From: a virus
Taxonomy: Duplodnaviria; Heunggongvirae; Uroviricota; Caudoviricetes
Virus record (IMG/VR): IMGVR_UViG_2872698443_000001
Length of the DNA: 18,271 nucleotides
Direction: 5' to 3' (one strand)
The position numbers and the translations under genes are program-made. Under the pieces are notes generated by a model. The model was not told where the DNA came from. It saw only the letters and a list, made by a program, of their open reading frames with translations, and did not search any database. How positions within the stretch are numbered: the stretch's first letter is position 1; every line of letters starts with the position of its first letter. Positions 1,156-17,989 of the stretch are shown one piece after another.

Positions 1156-2376
1156 ATGGCTGGCGAACTTAACAAACTGAGCGACAGGAAGTTAAAGGGA
1201 TTACATGGTATCCCGGCCAGTAAGATTGAGTTCTATGCTGATGGTGCCGGGCTGAGCGCCAAGGTAACTAAAGCTGGTGGTATTAGCTGGGTGTTTACTT
1301 ACCGACTCGACGGGCAGAAGCTGCATCGTCTTACTCTGGGACGATACCCGGATATGAGCCTCAAAGAGGCCCGTTCTTCGCGTGATAAATGCCGCCAATG
1401 GCTGGCCTCAGGTAAAGATCCAAAGCACCAGTTGGCGCTGACCACTCAGGAAACGCTTAAACCGGTCACTGTTAAGGAAGCTATAGAATACTGGATACGC
1501 GAATATGCAGAAGAGAACCGCGCGAATGTTGAACGGCACAAAGCGGAGCTGCGAAAACACATTTATCCTTATATAGGGAAAATGGCGCTCGCTGACTGTG
1601 AAACACGATACTGGCTTGACTGCTTTGACAGGATGAAAAAGAAAACTCCAGTCGCCGCAGGTTATGTGTTCCAGATGTGCAAACAAGCCCTGAAATTCTG
1701 CCGGGTTCGTCGCTATGCTGTGAGTACCGCGCTTGAAGATTTAACAATTCCAGATGTCGGTAAAAAACAGGCAAAAAAAGACCGGGTATTAAACGATAAA
1801 GAGGCTGGCGATTTATGGGCTGCCATTTCCTCTGGCACTTGCTTCATGCCTTACTACACCAGGCTACTGACAATCTTAATGGTGTTTGGGTGCCGAACGC
1901 AGGAGGCCAGGCTATCAGAGTGGAGTGAATGGGATATGGATGCCTGGGTCTGGACAGTTCCCAAAGAGCACAGCAAGGGCGGCGAGAAGATTGTAAGACC
2001 TGTGCCGGATGCCATGCGCAAATTCATTGAAATACTGCATGATGAAACGAAACGATCCGGCCTTTTGCTTGGGTCGGTTAAAGGCAGTGAAGCGGTAAGT
2101 CAGTGGGGCCGCGGTGTTTATAAAAAGCTGGGGCATTCTGAACCATGGACACTGCACGATCTAAGACGAACTTTAGCAACGCATATGAATAATATGGGTA
2201 TAGCACCACACGTTGTCGAACAGTTGTTGGGGCACTCAATGCCGGGAGTTATGGCGATTTATAACCGTAGTCTGTACTTGCCTGAGAAATTGGATGCGTT
2301 GAATAAATGGTATGACAGACTTGATATTTTATCAGGTGGATTCACTAACATTGTTTTGTTGAATAGGGCTGAATAA
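1156..2376 (+). CDS. Tyrosine-type site-specific integrase (P4-like, 406 aa)
   Basis: Long ORF adjacent to the att repeat; C-terminal catalytic signatures (HDLRRT, GHSMPGVMAIYNRS with the presumptive catalytic Tyr); N-terminal region resembles the arm-binding domain of P4-family integrases. Confidence 0.9.
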   Translation: MAGELNKLSDRKLKGLHGIPASKIEFYADGAGLSAKVTKAGGISWVFTYRLDGQKLHRLTLGRYPDMSLKEARSSRDKCRQWLASGKDPKHQLALTTQETLKPVTVKEAIEYWIREYAEENRANVERHKAELRKHIYPYIGKMALADCETRYWLDCFDRMKKKTPVAAGYVFQMCKQALKFCRVRRYAVSTALEDLTIPDVGKKQAKKDRVLNDKEAGDLWAAISSGTCFMPYYTRLLTILMVFGCRTQEARLSEWSEWDMDAWVWTVPKEHSKGGEKIVRPVPDAMRKFIEILHDETKRSGLLLGSVKGSEAVSQWGRGVYKKLGHSEPWTLHDLRRTLATHMNNMGIAPHVVEQLLGHSMPGVMAIYNRSLYLPEKLDALNKWYDRLDILSGGFTNIVLLNRAE

Positions 2377-2923
2377 TGACTAGTTTTCTAAAATTGGGTA
2401 TTTTCGAGCGAGAAGCCAAAGCCCCGGAACTCAATATTAAACAACTTGCACTACTTATGTGTGGGGTAGATCCGACAGTTAAAACTGCTGATATCCCTGA
2501 GGCGAAAGTTGAAGCTTACAATATATACTATCGACAACTGAGTAGATGGTTATCAGCATCTAAATTATTTCGAGGTGGAAACTCAACAGCCTATCCCGCA
2601 GACTATATGTTTGCTCTGGCATATCCTCTTATTGATGAAGATATTACACCACAACCCATAAAGGACAGATGCCTTGCGGCGGTGGCTATAATTGCTAATC
2701 AAAACAAAGGAAAAGAGCATCTTTATGCTATGGGAGGGGATGAGCTTTTACAGGTCGGAATTGCATTGAAAAGCAGCAAACGCGGCTTGCATCGTAAAGA
2801 AGATGAAAAGGAATATAATGATAAATTAATGGGGATGCTGGTCAAGCTTATAGCACATAAGATAGGCCGGTAATGCTGCCAACTTACTGATTTAGTGTAT
2901 GATGGTGTTTTTGAGGTGCTCCA

Positions 2924-3199
2924 GTGGCTTCTGTTTCTATCAGCTGTCCCTCCTGTTCAGCTACTGACGGGGTGGTGCGTAACGGCAAAAGCACCGCCGG
3001 ACATCAGCGCTATCTCTGCTCTCACTGCCGTAAAACATGGCAACTGCAGTTCACTTACACCGCTTCTCAACCCGGTACGCACCAGAAAATCATTGATATG
3101 GCCATGAATGGCGTTGGATGCCGGGCAACTGCCCGCATTATGGGCGTTGGCCTCAACACGATTTTACGTCACTTAAAAAACTCAGGCCGCAGTCGGTAA
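2924..3199 (+). CDS. insA: IS1 InsA
   Basis: 91-aa [26 protein letters not shown]... recognised as IS1 InsA with its zinc-finger and HTH region. Confidence 0.95.
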
Positions 3200-3621
3200 C
3201 CTCGCGCATACAGCCGGGCAGTGACGTCATCGTCTGCGCGGAAATGGACGAACAGTGGGGCTATGTCGGGGCTAAATCGCGCCAGCGCTGGCTGTTTTAC
3301 GCGTATGACAGGCTCCGGAAGACGGTTGTTGCGCACGTATTCGGTGAACGCACTATGGCGACGCTGGGGCGTCTTATGAGCCTGCTGTCACCCTTTGACG
3401 TGGTGATATGGATGACGGATGGCTGGCCGCTGTATGAATTCCGCCTGAAGGGAAAGCTGCACGTAATCAGCAAGCGATATACGCAGCGAATTGAGCGGCA
3501 TAACCTGAATCTGAGGCAGCACCTGGCACGGCTGGGACGGAAGTCGCTGTCGTTCTCAAAATCGGTGGAGCTGCATGACAAAGTCATCGGGCATTATCTG
3601 AACATAAAACACTATCAATAA
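3118..3621 (+). CDS. insB: IS1 InsB (expressed as InsAB' transposase by -1 frameshift)
   Basis: 167-aa ORF recognised as IS1 InsB; overlaps insA in the -1 frame; frameshift site TTAAAAAAC at about 3173-3181. Confidence 0.9.
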
Positions 3622-3939
3622 GTTGGAGTCATTACCAGATAGGCCATTCGTTTGGCACCTCTAAAAAACCAAGCATCTCGGCTATTTTAAACGAACTATA
3701 TAAATTAGCTGATGAGGAAGGTATATCTAAAACTGGATTATCCAAATCAGCAATATATGATAAAATTCGCAAGGCATTAAATTCGATTTATTATACGGAA
3801 TGAATATTATTTTGCAGTGTTAGTGGGTATTATTTATATTTCATGTGAAAATACTAATTAATTATATTTGTTGGAGCTTTTGGCGATTCTATGATCGCCA
3901 AGGAGATTCAATTGTTATATTTGATGTTTATTACAGTTA

Positions 3940-4020
3940 CATTCAACAGCATTCAACAGCATTCAACGACACGTAATGACACGTAACGGCACCCGACAGC
4001 ACCTAACAATACCTAGCTCC
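3940..4020. repeat. Array of ~10-bp phased direct repeats (CATTCAACAG x3, CACGTAAYGR x2, CACCYRACA-like x2)
   Basis: Read directly: successive near-identical decamers with exact 10-bp spacing in the AT-rich intergenic region upstream of alpA. Confidence 0.6.
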
Positions 4021-4060
4021 ATCCACGGTCTCTACTAGGTCATTACTTGCTAACTTTTTC

Positions 4061-4120
4061 CATCTTTGTTCATGGTTATTCATCACTGTTCATCAGCGTT
4101 CATCATTGTTCATCTTTGTT
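4061..4120. repeat. Six phased CATC-NN-TGTT decamers (iteron-like, TGTTCAT core); candidate crr-like or regulatory protein-binding array
   Basis: CATCTTTGTT CATGGTTATT CATCACTGTT CATCAGCGTT CATCATTGTT CATCTTTGTT at exact 10-bp periodicity; the TGTTCAT core resembles the TGTTCACC iterons at 8571-8799, about 4.5 kb away. Confidence 0.5.
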
Positions 4121-4373
4121 ATGAACAATCCAAGGCGAATCAAATCGTTAGAGAACGGTGATCTTCGGCGAGTTATTGAAATTCATGATTTTTTCTCTCG
4201 CGACAGCCGTTGAAATTACTGTGGAAATTGTTTTCAACAGGGGAGCGTTATCTTGATGGAATTTCTATCTTTCAATGGAATTGCGTGTTCTTTTAAAGGA
4301 TTCCAGAATCAATGGAAATGCTGGTCGTTTATCCACTAATCTCTTCGCATAACATTGAAACAGTGGAGGCAGC

Positions 4374-4658
4374 ATGCAAAATATAACCTTTACCCCGCCA
4401 AATCCTGAACAACGCCGCACCCTTTTAGAAGAGTACGGCTTTAAGTTTGATCGCCGAATCCGTGAAGATGAATGCAGCGAGATCACCAGTCTTTCCCGTT
4501 CCAGCCGCTGGAAGATGGAACAGCAGGGGCGCTTCCCTCCGCGCTGTCACTTTGGCCGCAATAGCTGTGCTTGGCTTCTTTCGGATGTGCTCTGGTGGGT
4601 TCGTAATCCGCCAGCAGTAGAGAACGTCAATAACCCATACAGCCGTAAATCTGCTTAA
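4374..4658 (+). CDS. alpA: AlpA-family phage transcriptional regulator (94 aa)
   Basis: Translation contains the AlpA-type HTH region (ITSLSRSSRWKMEQQGRFPPRCHFGRNSCAWLLSDVLWW); GGAGG Shine-Dalgarno 5 nt upstream of the ATG. Confidence 0.85.
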   Translation: MQNITFTPPNPEQRRTLLEEYGFKFDRRIREDECSEITSLSRSSRWKMEQQGRFPPRCHFGRNSCAWLLSDVLWWVRNPPAVENVNNPYSRKSA

Positions 4659-4678: not shown

Positions 4679-5371
4679 ATGAAAAAGATTAATGCCCTCC
4701 ACGGGCAGGGATTCGCTCACCCTGTAGCCAGCCAGCACGATATTTCAGCGAACCGTAAACAGGTTATTGCCGGTGACTGGTCGCCCATTAATCGTGGTGA
4801 ATTTACGCTTGCCGATCTGGGGTTGCGCCACAACGGTAACGGGCTGGTGTGGCTGCGTTCCGGCGTGTCCGTGCATGAGGCAGACCATGATGCAGGGATA
4901 AGCGGCAAGGACAAGACCAAAGGAAGGGTTAACGGCCTTCCTTTTGAATTTGTCGGCCAGTGGCAGGAATACCCGACTAAACGCAGCTTTGCCGTTTCAG
5001 TATCTACGGAACTACGGCGCCAGTATTACCCGGACGATGCCGCATTCAGTAAGGCAATGCGTGAGGCTGGTTATGTTCCGGTGCGCACTCGCAAACTGAC
5101 CGGAAAGGATGCTCGTTTTTGGCTGTACCGTGTAACGGGCAATGATAAGGGGGTTGTCGCAGCAGAATCCGCGCCACACAAGGCTTGCGCGCCAGTTGTC
5201 CAGACCATATCTAAGCCTCATCCGTGGTTTAAGCGTGTGGCACTCGATGGTAAATGGCAGTACGTCTACGCAGATCACATCCGCTTTCTGACTAAAAAGC
5301 GTCATCGCGTCGATGGTGTTCGGGTTCAGGGGTATACCGCTGGCGGGCTGAAAGTGGAGGCTATTGTATGA
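4679..5371 (+). CDS. Hypothetical protein (230 aa)
   Basis: Long ORF co-directional with alpA; its stop overlaps the next ORF start (ATGA). No family recognised. Confidence 0.6.
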   Translation: MKKINALHGQGFAHPVASQHDISANRKQVIAGDWSPINRGEFTLADLGLRHNGNGLVWLRSGVSVHEADHDAGISGKDKTKGRVNGLPFEFVGQWQEYPTKRSFAVSVSTELRRQYYPDDAAFSKAMREAGYVPVRTRKLTGKDARFWLYRVTGNDKGVVAAESAPHKACAPVVQTISKPHPWFKRVALDGKWQYVYADHIRFLTKKRHRVDGVRVQGYTAGGLKVEAIV

Positions 5372-6627: not shown

Positions 6628-6805
6628 AATCAACGATAGCTGGAAGGATAAGCGCGGCGAACTGGTCACGGTGAAAGATAACGCATTTAACCGGGTAACG
6701 TTTGTGCGTGATGGTTACGATTTTCCGTGCATCTTTCCGCTGGAAAGGTTCGTTAAAGAGTTCACTTTCGTTAGCTGGGGGCTGAAAGATGAAAAACGCG
6801 CCTAA
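6614..6805 (+). CDS. Small hypothetical phage protein (63 aa, GTG start)
   Basis: GTG start preceded by GGGAGG; overlaps the start of the replication gene. The pattern resembles small proteins I recall next to P4-family replication genes, but that is from memory and uncertain. Confidence 0.5.
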   Translation: MRNPEINDSWKDKRGELVTVKDNAFNRVTFVRDGYDFPCIFPLERFVKEFTFVSWGLKDEKRA

Positions 6806-8540
6806 TGTGAAAACCCTCCCGCGCGACAAAATGGAGGAGGCCATCATCTTTGCTGGAACGGGAGCATGGAAAGCCGCTCAGGATTACCAGAAAGGGAAGG
6901 GCGAGCATGGAGACGATGTTCCGCCTGTGGTTCTGGATCACACTCAACTGGCGGAATTGCCACACCTGCGCATTGTTGATAAAGGCCGTCGATTTGCCCG
7001 TGTCTGTCAGGCCGGGCTTATCGAGCAAAACCAAATCAGCATGATTGCAAATAAGCTGTGTGAGGCTGGCGTTACCAATGCTGAGTTTATCAACGAAAAA
7101 GGCGAGAAAGAGGACTGGACGCCATTGATGAAACGTCTGGAAGACGAGCCACTTATGGTGACTACGAGGGGAAGTGCTACGCCTGCGCTTAACCAGATGG
7201 GAGCCAGCCAGCGCGGGGAAGTTCTGCTTGCTCATTACGATGGCAATCTGGCGATCCATGCTGATTCCGACACGGTTCATCATTACAACGGCGTGGTGTG
7301 GGTTCCGCTTTCGGATAAAGAGCTGCAGCGAGAAATGGCGCAGATTTTTATTGATTCCGAAGTCGCCTATTCGCAGAACGCGATTAAATCCGCTGTCGAT
7401 ACAATGAAGCTGGGCCTCCCGGTAATGGGTAACACAGCCCGTAACCTGATTGGTTTCAGCAACGGGGTTTTTGATACCCGGTTAGGCCAATTTCGACCGC
7501 ATGATAAAAAGGACTGGCTTATCGTTGCGAGCGAATTGCCATTCAGCGAACCAGCAGAAGGTGAAACTCTGGCAACCCATGCGCCTAACTTCTGGAAATG
7601 GCTCCGCCGCTCTGTGGCGGATAATGACCGAAAAGCAGACCGCGTACTGTCTGCGCTGTTTATGGTGCTGGCGAACCGGTACGACTGGCAGCTGTTTCTT
7701 GAGGTAACGGGGCCGGGCGGAAGTGGTAAAAGTGTTATGGCTGAGATCTGCACGATGCTGGCGGGCAAGGCCAACACCGTATCGGCGAGCATGGCGGCGC
7801 TGGAGAACCCAAGGGAAAGGGCGCTGGTAGTGGGCTATTCGCTGATTATCATGCCGGATATGACCCGGTACGCTGGCGACGGCGCAGGGATTAAAGCTAT
7901 CACTGGCGGGGATAAGGTAGCCATTGACCCTAAACACAAAGCGCCATATTCAACCCGTATACCTGCGGTGGTGCTGGCCGTCAATAACAATGCCATGTCG
8001 TTCAGCGACAGAAGCGGGGGGATTTCCAGACGGCGGGTGATTTTCAACTTCTCCGAAGTGGTACCGGAAAACGAACGCGATCCTATGCTGGCCGAGAAGA
8101 TTGAAGGTGAGCTGGCTGTAATCATTCGCCACCTGCTCACTCGCTTTTCCAGGCAGGACGAAGCCAAACAGCTTTTGCATGAGCAGCAAAAATCAGAAGA
8201 AGCGCTGGCCATTAAACGTGAAGGGGATTCACTGGTGGACTTTTGCGGCTACCTGATGGCTTCGGTGGTTTGTGATGGAATGCTGATTGGTAATGCCGAG
8301 ATCGTGCCATTCAGCCCGCGCCGTTATCTGTATCACGCTTATCTGGCTTACATGCGGGCCAATGGTCTTAGCAAGCCTGTATCGTTAATGCGGTTCGGTA
8401 CGGATATGCCAGGCGCAATGGCTGAATATGGCAAGGAGTACCAGAAGCGCAAAACTAAACATGGCATAAGATCGAACGTCACCCTGCATGATGATTCAGA
8501 AGACTGGATGCCAATGTGTACCGATACAACAAAAGAATAA
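6789..8540 (+). CDS. P4-alpha-like replication protein with SF3 helicase domain (583 aa); no obvious primase domain
   Basis: Walker A GPGGSGKS in a D5/P4-primase-C-terminal-type helicase context; followed immediately by an array of TGTTCACC iterons, the recognition sequence of P4 alpha. Confidence 0.85.
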   Translation: MKNAPNVKTLPRDKMEEAIIFAGTGAWKAAQDYQKGKGEHGDDVPPVVLDHTQLAELPHLRIVDKGRRFARVCQAGLIEQNQISMIANKLCEAGVTNAEFINEKGEKEDWTPLMKRLEDEPLMVTTRGSATPALNQMGASQRGEVLLAHYDGNLAIHADSDTVHHYNGVVWVPLSDKELQREMAQIFIDSEVAYSQNAIKSAVDTMKLGLPVMGNTARNLIGFSNGVFDTRLGQFRPHDKKDWLIVASELPFSEPAEGETLATHAPNFWKWLRRSVADNDRKADRVLSALFMVLANRYDWQLFLEVTGPGGSGKSVMAEICTMLAGKANTVSASMAALENPRERALVVGYSLIIMPDMTRYAGDGAGIKAITGGDKVAIDPKHKAPYSTRIPAVVLAVNNNAMSFSDRSGGISRRRVIFNFSEVVPENERDPMLAEKIEGELAVIIRHLLTRFSRQDEAKQLLHEQQKSEEALAIKREGDSLVDFCGYLMASVVCDGMLIGNAEIVPFSPRRYLYHAYLAYMRANGLSKPVSLMRFGTDMPGAMAEYGKEYQKRKTKHGIRSNVTLHDDSEDWMPMCTDTTKE

Positions 8541-8570: not shown

Positions 8571-8799
8571 GTGTTCACCACTGTTCACCATGTATAAAAA
8601 TCATTAAATAACAATATGTTAATGGGTGAACACTTTTTTATGAAGTGTTCACCAAGTATTCACCAGTTCACCTTTAAAGGGCTTTTCTTTTAAAAGGTGA
8701 AGGGTTAAGGTGAACACTAGTGAATACTTAAAATCATAGTCTTCACCCTGTAACCGAATGAATTTAAATAGGAAAAATGCAAAGGTGAACAGGTGAACA
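8571..8799. repeat. Origin-type iteron array: about 10 copies of TGTTCACC / GGTGAACA in both orientations (P4 ori-like)
   Basis: Copies at about 8572, 8582, 8625 (rc), 8646, 8657 (variant), 8665 (variant), 8709 (rc), 8720 (rc variant), 8784 (rc) and 8791 (rc), in AT-rich DNA just downstream of the helicase gene. Confidence 0.8.
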
Positions 8800-9136: not shown

Positions 9137-9658
9137 TTAACGATGTAATTCATTAATTTTGTCGCTGACGTTTTTTTTCCTTAACTCATTCAAGAAAAAA
9201 TAATTAACAAGTATCACCCTAAATATCGCTGCGAATTGCGCGATAGCCAAGAAAGCTACAAATGTAAAATTAAGGTATTTAACATAAGGGATATAGTTAA
9301 CATCAACCAGGCCTTTAAGTAAAGGGGCGAAGAATTGTATAAGAAGAACAGCCATTAATACAACAGCTGATACCATGACGATCTCAACTAATTCGCTTAA
9401 ATAATTAGCATCTTTATGTGATTCCTTCCCCTCGGCTTTATTTGATTGAGGTGAGTCCCTCTTATTTAATATTCTCGCCATCGCCCTTGGATAAATAATT
9501 GCTATCCAGGCGCCTATAATGGCAAATATTATAGATGAAATATTAAGCAGGGCACCTAGCGTGTCCTTGTAATCATTATAGCCAAGCGTTGTTATTCGGC
9601 CTCTAAATATAATGGCCATCAAGGCTGCTATAAGCACATAAATTATATATTTTATCAT
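9137..9658 (-). CDS. Small integral membrane protein with four predicted transmembrane helices (173 aa); second gene of cargo operon
   Basis: Four hydrophobic stretches (about residues 4-18, 34-56, 88-113, 129-153) separated by charged loops; its start is 1 nt after the upstream gene's stop (TGA-C-ATG on the minus strand); visibly AT-rich. Confidence 0.75.
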   Translation of the reverse strand: MIKYIIYVLIAALMAIIFRGRITTLGYNDYKDTLGALLNISSIIFAIIGAWIAIIYPRAMARILNKRDSPQSNKAEGKESHKDANYLSELVEIVMVSAVVLMAVLLIQFFAPLLKGLVDVNYIPYVKYLNFTFVAFLAIAQFAAIFRVILVNYFFLNELRKKNVSDKINELHR

Positions 9659-17885: not shown

Positions 17886-17908
17886 CTGTATAAACATCTG
17901 TATAAACA
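17886..17908. promoter_or_regulatory. Second tandem TGTATAAACA pair, candidate arm-type integrase binding sites on the opposite arm
   Basis: CTGTATAAACATCTGTATAAACA matches 1115-1137 at 22/23 positions in the same orientation, 4 bp from the right att repeat. Confidence 0.45.
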
Positions 17909-17911
17909 ATA

Positions 17912-17989
17912 ATAAAAAAGGCGCATCCCCATGCCGAGTAGCGCCTTTTTATTCAATAACATAGCTGAAATGTATCAGTTCATGCCGTA
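17912..17989. repeat. Right copy of ~78-bp imperfect direct repeat; includes the fis terminator and the last five fis codons
   Basis: See 908-985; this copy is contiguous with the intact fis gene (stop at 17975-17977). Confidence 0.8.

Follow-up and report, generated by a model that had tools for sequence, protein, structure and literature searches.

In the phage satellite P4, three exact tandem decamers known as type 2 repeats (CCACTTAAAG TCATTTAAAG CCACTTAAAG, positions 9176-9205 of the P4 record) lie upstream of vis and fit the cox-box consensus TTAAAGNCA, and it is via cox boxes that the Cox protein of phage P2, a winged-helix protein that forms filaments and wraps DNA, activates P4 PLL and thereby derepresses P4 (PMC3936717). 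More generally, the sites of recombination directionality factors (RDFs) are direct repeats placed one helical turn apart (PMC7498355). The phage-inducible chromosomal islands (PICIs) of Gram-negative bacteria, for their part, have AlpA as their master activator, and their alpA gene is turned on by a helper-phage factor that has not been identified, no repressor being known (PMC6092414). The stretch of DNA considered here, all 18,271 nucleotides of the viral record IMGVR_UViG_2872698443_000001 (Caudoviricetes; hereafter the window), carries a PICI-type satellite island in which two arrays of decameric direct repeats lie between the integrase gene int and alpA, behind a gene for a 216-residue (216-aa) protein to which, among related satellites, they are linked. 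What are these arrays for? The reading put forward below, whose chances fall a little short of even, is that they form, at the level of DNA, a head-to-tail ladder of protein-binding sites within a regulatory cassette for alpA.

The two arrays read as follows.

3940-4029, plus strand: array A, nine 10-bp units of three sub-families (CATTCAACAG; CACGTAAYGR; YACCYAACAR).
4061-4129, plus strand: array B, six 10-bp units (4061-4120) built on an nnGTTCATnn core and closed by an inverted copy (4121-4129).

Array A begins with two copies of CATTCAACAG and continues with CATTCAACGA, CACGTAATGA, CACGTAACGG, CACCCGACAG, CACCTAACAA, TACCTAGCTC and CATCCACGGT, while array B consists of CATCTTTGTT, CATGGTTATT, CATCACTGTT, CATCAGCGTT, CATCATTGTT and CATCTTTGTT again, four of the six units being exact fits to CATCNNTGTT. 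The inverted copy ATGAACAAT at 4121-4129 pairs with 4105-4113 as a 9-bp inverted repeat. TGTTCAT occurs in array B three times directly and once inverted. (A 30-codon open reading frame, 4121-4213, MNNPRRIKSLENGDLRRVIEIHDFFSRDSR, begins at the ATG of this inverted copy; it lacks both a Shine-Dalgarno sequence and conservation across other lineages and probably does not represent a gene.) With Tandem Repeats Finder, a period of 10 is detected at 3940-3967, 3968-3986 and 4061-4120, and the lag-10 self-match is 0.68 in array A and 0.66 in array B against 0.256 +/- 0.067 window-wide, reaching 0.55 or more nowhere else in the 18-kb window; when the intergenic region was shuffled 2000 times, the observed maximum of 0.75 was never reached. 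Lag-10 matches of 0.66-0.76 put the periodicity far beyond chance. Direct reading, Tandem Repeats Finder and shuffles therefore agree that the two 10-bp-phased arrays upstream of alpA, first pointed out in a preliminary description made from the letters of the window, are real. They sit 245-434 bp upstream of alpA and 2.4 kb upstream of the primase start. The same description placed all repeated sites on one face of the DNA, which holds only in part: a period of 10.0 bp on a helix of 10.5 bp drifts by about 17 degrees per unit, so that a common face can be shared by a few neighboring units and not by the whole array; in addition, array B starts 121 bp after the start of array A, the register shifting by 1 bp across the 31-bp spacer. 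No further copies of the array motifs, as a wider regulon might have left, were found elsewhere in the island, nor near attL or attR, where the sole repeats are the CTGTATAAACA arm-type sites described below.

The evidence that carries the argument comes from 80 viral-contig loci with an AlpA 80-100% identical to that of the window, in which the upstream 700 bp were scored for 10-bp periodicity, and which were also scored for homologues of every neighboring protein and for clusters of TGTTCACC, the octamer that makes up the island's replication origin. Both arrays are present in 16 of these loci, exactly those that carry the 216-aa gene, and in none of the 64 others; in 47 distinct control regions upstream of alpA without the gene, the lag-10 match never exceeds 0.48. 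Conservation in related elements, the lack of which the preliminary description had named as fatal to its proposal, is thus found both here and in the distant homologue lineages treated below. The arrays are linked to the 216-aa gene and not to the replication protein (Rep), the origin, AlpA or the integrase (Int).

This comparison bears first on AlpA itself, which, as a winged-helix protein of the Xis/Vis type, might polymerize on the decamers for autoactivation or excision. AlpA is a PF05930 protein 31% identical to P4 Vis, it activates its own promoter in EcCICFT073 and EcCIMP1, and RDF-type proteins bind just such helically phased direct repeats (PMC7498355). However, loci with 96-99% identical AlpA possess neither the arrays nor any upstream enrichment of their GTTCA core, two loci with AlpA 100% identical (L108 and L109) have unrelated arrays with 5% of array 6-mers in common, and the motifs are not repeated near attL or attR, all of which makes the arrays improbable as AlpA's own sites. 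The earlier suggestion of an operator array controlling alpA therefore survives in spirit, as an operator in front of alpA, and fails as far as AlpA would be its ligand. Arm-type sites of the integrase were likewise considered and rejected: the arrays do not follow Int, which is 76-77% identical in the array-bearing loci L075 and L087 and 97-99% identical in many array-free ones, and the arm repeat (CTGTATAAACA) is a different one.

The other proposal of the preliminary description was that the arrays resemble the cis replication region (crr) of P4. On this view, the primase would recognize the TGTTCAT units in array B and thereby connect them with the TGTTCACC origin, just as P4 alpha couples ori and crr. 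The two features of the island that matter here are:

6789-8540: gene for a D5/P4-alpha-type primase-helicase.
8572-8799: origin iterons downstream of the primase gene, seven copies of TGTTCACC divided into two sets by an AT-rich stretch.

Several observations speak for it. The TGTTCAT core of array B and its gap to the origin iterons are as described (the measured distance is 4.5-4.7 kb), a spacing like that between P4 ori and crr; TGTTCATC is one base off the origin octamer; the primase is 51% identical to residues 327-775 of P4 alpha, its helicase and DNA-binding part, and the octamer itself is identical to the P4 type 1 repeat; finally, a P4 decamer within the ori region, TTGTTCATCT (9166-9175), is identical to positions 4106-4115 of array B. 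(This P4 decamer abuts the cox-box decamers upstream of vis, and its match to array B could be chance or a shared weak site.) Nevertheless, the arrays are missing from eight loci whose origin is of the TGTTCACC type and whose AlpA and primase share 96-99% and 99-100% identity, respectively, with those of the window (L072, L080, L082, L085, L089, L092, L096 and L098), and are present in ten loci without a TGTTCACC cluster, eight of which show other iterons (GTAGACAC, GAACCAAC or TGGGATAA) while the array sequence stays unchanged across these three other origin types. Absence with the same primase and origin, and presence with other origins, leave the crr idea unsupported. The likeness of the core to the origin iterons is also limited, as no unit is a true TGTTCACC: there is none within 3940-4129, all seven lying at 8572-8799, and all six array B units have T where every origin iteron variant, however degenerate, has the C of a conserved TTCACC.

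The geometry of P4 points the same way. In the P4 record, crr (4291-4590, with ten annotated type 1 repeats) lies downstream of alpha, beside its 3' end at 4636, whereas ori/PLL lies upstream of vis, the alpA homologue, with type 1 repeats also at 9310-9413. The TGTTCACC cluster downstream of the primase gene therefore fills the crr position, and the arrays occupy that of ori/PLL. Moreover, the published description of the Gram-negative PICI origin, two iteron sets on either side of an AT-rich stretch directly behind pri-rep, fits 8572-8799 and not the arrays, and in EcCICFT073 the pri gene and the iteron cluster downstream of it are enough for plasmid replication (PMC6092414). What is shared with crr is thus that repeats are clustered some 4.5 kb away from a group of TGTTCACC iterons and that the element encodes a P4 alpha-like primase; what differs is that crr has ori's octamer and lies downstream of alpha, whereas the arrays are devoid of TGTTCACC, are found upstream of alpA and vary independently of Rep and of the origin type. 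A crr-like role is accordingly extremely improbable. The broader idea of a protein-binding array fits all findings and is still the best explanation, even though the two binders first proposed for it, the replication protein and AlpA, both fail the comparative test.

What, then, is the gene with which the arrays travel? Its surroundings in the window are these.

2376-3803, plus strand: the 216-aa gene, its product assigned to phrog_30524 and to no Pfam family, overlapping the int stop codon and split by IS1.
2869-3636: IS1 within this gene, with a 9-bp target duplication (2860-2868, identical to 3637-3645).
3880-3901, plus strand: hairpin with an 8-bp stem (TTGGCGAT-N6-ATCGCCAA), 3' of the 216-aa gene.

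IS1 removes the C-terminal 51 residues of the protein; E. coli TUM9754 is annotated with this interrupted allele as well, the gene is intact in E. coli OW1E2 (L002:5354-6004), and the element of K. pneumoniae ATCC 13883 is likewise free of IS1. The family is small, with 46 cluster representatives among 1.8 billion proteins. Homologues 28-75% identical to the window's protein come from Yersinia, Rahnella, Brenneria, Xenorhabdus, Proteus, Providencia, Acerihabitans, Erwinia and Pantoea. Every family context recovered, from these genera and from a metagenome, shows the same gene order, int, 216-aa gene, a spacer of 275-670 bp and alpA, and the spacers hold runs of short tandem repeats whose unit sequences are lineage-specific. 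In 12 of 14 scored lineages, the best period is exactly 10, its value being reached by at most 9 of 500 shuffles and in most cases by none, and in the remaining two (E. coli L103 and Yersinia) it is 9; in two lineages added later (L158 and L159), 10-bp units were seen by eye. A GTTCA core recurs in these spacers, found 29 times in sense and 7 times in antisense orientation where 8 are expected per strand, often at 10-bp steps, compared with 0.28 per 400 bp in control regions upstream of alpA; enrichment in one orientation points to a binder conserved throughout the family. The 216-aa protein is predicted to be all-alpha (pLDDT 84), with a 52-residue central helix and a C-terminal pair of helices resembling a helix-turn-helix, and no known fold or domain matching the model was found. 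Given that linkage to the arrays is the only basis for it, DNA binding by this protein is something we infer.

The GTTCA core also brings in a host regulator. TorR, of the OmpR/PhoB family, binds tor boxes, decamers of the type CTGTTCATAT arranged as direct repeats (PMC9239176), and array B might be a set of weak tor boxes tying alpA to trimethylamine N-oxide (TMAO) and anaerobic signaling. In the K-12 torR-torC spacer, boxes 1 and 2 abut at 10 bp and box 3 reads CCGTTCATCC; array B units match the tor box at 7, 6, 8, 6 and 8 of 10 positions, the inverted copy at 8 of 10, and GTTCA(Y) occurs in most lineages. TorR is, in addition, bound by TorI, and TorI is an AlpA-like excisionase (PDB 1Z4H). 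On the other hand, matches of at least 7/10 are common by chance in an AT-rich spacer (13 observed, 6.7 expected), no box reaches 9/10 or 10/10, and even a natural box 3, itself a 7/10 match, does not bind alone (PMC9239176). Four lineages (L103, L109, L141 and L149) are without any tor-box-like unit, and a host factor would leave the exclusive linkage to the 216-aa gene unexplained, so that TorR is to be given little credence.

Between the arrays and the alpA start codon, the window holds three further elements.

4176-4240, plus strand: unique spacer with scattered T(T/G)GAAAT motifs (4176-4183, 4210-4217 and 4221-4228).
4257-4318, plus strand: four promoter-proximal TGGAAT-type sites (TGGAAT at 4257-4262 and 4276-4281, inverted ATTCCA at 4300-4305, TGGAAA at 4313-4318).
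4332-4369, plus strand: alpA leader hairpin, a weak version (TCCACT / AGTGGA).
4374-4658, plus strand: alpA.

An inverted copy of the array A core (TTCAACAG) lies in the spacer at 4233-4240, and the last TGGAAT-type site overlaps a plausible weak -35 element. The four-site arrangement, three direct and one inverted, is found in every satellite with a 216-aa homologue and is absent from alpA loci without one; the motif becomes CTAGAAA in Proteus and TGGATT in a distant clade, in step with changes in the C-terminal helix of the protein. Being fixed, restricted to the family and variable along with that helix, the TGGAAT block has a better claim to being a specific operator than the arrays have. 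That the arrays might be tandem copies of the same motif was rejected, with 12 inverted TGGAAT matches against 12.0 expected over 15 lineages, Providencia L159 (GTATTCCATK x3) being the exception. The leader hairpin is a matter of its own: in nearly all alpA loci (L061-L140, last 45 nt), whatever lies upstream, the alpA Shine-Dalgarno sequence (GGAGG) forms its 3' arm (GCCTCCAC-N14-GTGGAGGC), with an RNAalifold energy of -10.9 kcal/mol and compensatory changes in two of eight pairs, for instance TCTCTGT/ACAGAGA in L104, which suggests that alpA may be under translational control through this hairpin.

The reading preferred here, with chances a little short of even, is of a three-part cassette between int and alpA: first the 216-aa gene, then the ladder of 10-bp units and, at the alpA promoter, four TGGAAT sites that would act as an operator. 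The cassette would set alpA transcription in one family of PICI-type satellites. With its sites one helical turn apart, the ladder could carry a protein polymerized along it that, as one possible outcome, holds the alpA promoter region in a repressed state, wrapped or looped. As to which protein this might be, the cassette's own 216-aa product is the most likely candidate, an assignment that is possible although still on the unlikely side; a helper-phage protein of the filament-forming Cox/Xis type, suggested by analogy, has a slim chance, and other binders would be very improbable. A bolder version, speculative and fairly unlikely, would make the cassette a previously unrecognized master switch of one Gram-negative PICI family, the functional counterpart of the Stl cassette of Staphylococcus aureus pathogenicity islands (SaPIs). 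In such a switch, the 216-aa orphan-fold protein would polymerize on the ladder, loop to the TGGAAT block and silence alpA until a helper-phage protein dismantled or replaced the filament, and the genes that take the place of the 216-aa gene in other satellites (DUF6387 and the like) would be alternative versions tuned to different helpers.

Several observations weigh against this scheme. Array 6-mer similarity between lineages correlates neither with the identity of the 216-aa proteins (rho -0.08) nor with that of AlpA (rho 0.12), and 216-aa proteins 70-74% identical can have unrelated array units; such independence from both proteins would fit arrays that are only loosely constrained in sequence, that follow an outside partner evolving rapidly, or that are neutral. 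Because the arrays adjoin the 216-aa gene, their co-occurrence could be mere linkage in one recombination module, and as a tandem array inherits its period, the conserved spacing of 10 could partly reflect descent and slippage instead of selection. IS1 interrupts the 216-aa gene in the window and in five of the six E. coli genomes that carry the element, so the cassette is dispensable for carriage. Finally, when the phage genomes of the collection were searched for similar arrays that might reveal a helper, only the packaged satellite itself matched.

Neutrality deserves a closer look in the light of copy number, which was compared among 21 near-identical elements, array B being delimitable in 19 of them. 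Array A occurs in 14 different lengths, the steps always being whole units, with 0-10 copies of CATTCAACAG, 0-6 of the CACG type and 3-8 of the YACC type, whereas the 60 bp of array B are identical in 17 of 19 elements; array A is thus a slippage hotspot, array B stable. Two strains of Yersinia pseudotuberculosis (L141 and L142) differ likewise at about 4870-4930, where a perfect 9-bp repeat, GCAAAATGT, is present in 3 and 5 copies, respectively, so that copy-number instability is a trait of the family; E. coli L103 has a 9-bp repeat of its own, CTGCATAAT, in three copies. One practical consequence is that the hypervariable copy number of array A offers a ready typing marker for these islands. 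Perhaps, then, the arrays are nothing but a neutral minisatellite, an ancestral 10-bp tandem duplication kept up by slippage and unit turnover while hitch-hiking with the adjacent gene. In favor of this are whole-unit differences in array A between nearly all isolates, the drift of unit sequence along each array, array similarity that follows no protein and a period that is heritable without selection. Yet the arrays have been kept in 16 of 16 lineages, down to 28% protein identity, despite the deletion bias of bacteria; many lineages have two separate arrays per element; GTTCA is enriched in one orientation; and array B has remained invariant in those 17 elements while array A varied beside it. 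Neutral persistence is for these reasons judged quite unlikely, and a binding ladder preferred.

The position between int and alpA is itself of a peculiar kind. In loci L061-L140, this slot holds exactly one gene of 215-315 aa whose start coincides with the int stop codon or is no more than a few bases away from it, and these genes belong to at least six unrelated families, none of them characterized, of which DUF6387 is the commonest and the others have no Pfam family. Behind the other slot families, the spacer measures 78-210 bp (311 bp in one case) and has no repeats. To judge by such gene content, the slot looks like a swappable specificity module. The literature searched contains no description of these repeats, of the 216-aa family or of a function for the int-alpA slot.

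What happens to transcription at the end of the slot gene is another question on which the arrays might bear. The hairpin at 3880-3901, which has comparable counterparts ahead of the arrays in relatives from Rahnella, Xenorhabdus and Acerihabitans, may be a weak terminator, although a terminator scan passed over it and predicted no intrinsic terminator here. Other int-X-alpA cassettes show clear intrinsic terminator hairpins at this position. Could the arrays instead serve as a Rho loading (rut) site, a pyrimidine-rich RNA with more C than G and regular YC dimers that stops read-through from the int operon before alpA? The arrays start 0-140 bp past the 216-aa stop codon, the sense strand has at least as much C as G in 14 of 15 lineages (C/G 2.1 in the window) and more T than A in all, and C>G skew together with regular YC dimers are the best descriptors of rut sites (PMC6144790). 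A period of exactly 10, however, equals the DNA helical repeat and falls below the 11-15 nt of the YC-N9-13 rut spacing (PMC6144790); the RNA fold is no less structured than that of shuffles (z -0.37); Yersinia has more G than C; and rut function requires neither strict periodicity nor a conserved GTTCA core. Rho loading is on balance decidedly unlikely, and the arrays are more readily understood as a ladder on DNA. Passive roles fare no better. With the wedge model, the result of which is indicative only, mean curvature is 11.5 and 8.1 degrees in the arrays against 9.8 +/- 5.7 in the window and 38 for a phased A-tract control, and intrinsic curvature was rejected, as was a structured RNA, the fold just mentioned being in no way unusual; the arrays gave no Rfam match at E <= 1. 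Background curvature, no Rfam match and an ordinary fold thus lend no support to a passive structural or RNA role.

As to the genomic setting, the window is a segment of the E. coli chromosome, yhdJ ... fis, with an island of about 17 kb, the ends of which are marked by the following features.

911-947 and 17914-17950: attachment (att) core, a 37-bp repeat that bounds the island.
1116-1142 and 17886-17908: paired CTGTATAAACA repeats with 12-bp spacing, probable integrase arm-type sites, adjoining each island end.
1156-2376: int, gene of a tyrosine integrase.

The att core repeat reads AAAAAAGGCGC(W)TCCCCATGCCGAGTAGCGCCTTTTT and resembles a terminator hairpin, and the paired CTGTATAAACA repeats are, from their sequence and placement, the probable arm-type sites. 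The island carries an HK97-type head and packaging set (major capsid protein, prohead protease, portal, head closure, head-tail connectors, HNH endonuclease, terS and terL) and, by the RefSeq annotation of an identical island and by Pfam, no tail genes. With int, alpA, a primase, an origin, capsid and packaging genes of its own, about 15-17 kb of length and att flanks, its gene set is that of the capsid-forming PICI family (bioRxiv 10.1101/2022.09.08.507074). The same element is on deposit as vB_KppS-Ant (LR881103.1, L003), a 'phage' particle of 16.5 kb obtained by induction; at 2036-4333, between terL and int, that record annotates a 2.3-kb 'tail length tape measure protein' where the window has a DUF3892 gene only. 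The int-alpA spacer is carried by 6 of 5426 complete E. coli genomes, and the same DNA is present in Klebsiella pneumoniae ATCC 13883, Enterobacter hormaechei and Citrobacter freundii.

What is the significance of such a cassette? How alpA is silenced and activated in Gram-negative PICIs has been an open question since their description, and the arrays offer a compact, conserved and manipulable cis-element, with a candidate trans-factor encoded directly upstream of alpA, in satellites of Klebsiella, Enterobacter, Citrobacter and E. coli. In addition, a wrong lead, that of a second replication site, has been removed.

Set beside known systems, the arrays share something with each of four. The tor boxes of the torCAD promoter are decameric direct repeats with a TGTTCAT core whose neighbors abut at 10 bp; they differ in that the best match is 8/10, in their arrangement as two plus two instead of six contiguous units, and in that the likeness fails across lineages. 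The RDF arrays of 186 Apl, lambda Xis and P2 Cox are likewise helical-turn direct repeats, which nucleate a cooperative filament for transcription control, yet they comprise 2-7 sites and are also found at att sites, whereas up to about 25 units occur here and none at attL or attR. The Stl-Str region of SaPIs, the master repressor cassette of Gram-positive PICIs, resembles the cassette as a highly variable, element-specific module beside int that would set the expression of induction genes; unlike it, the 216-aa gene points in the direction of alpA instead of diverging from it, and encodes no repressor domain. The cox boxes of P4 come nearest. The array units show no resemblance to the cox-box consensus (TTAAA(G/C)NC(A/C) / TTAAAGNCA), there are at least 15 units in two arrays as opposed to three tandem boxes in P4 (at least six boxes in all), and a separate TGGAAT block at the promoter and a linked 216-aa gene are present here, P4 having no 216-aa gene. 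Both systems nevertheless place exact tandem decamers, with a period of 10.0 in each of the two arrays described here, in a phage satellite and upstream of an operon that is led by AlpA/Vis and ends in an alpha-type primase, so that, by analogy, the P4 cox boxes are the closest precedent in architecture and logic for the alpA cassette, unrelated as the sequences are.

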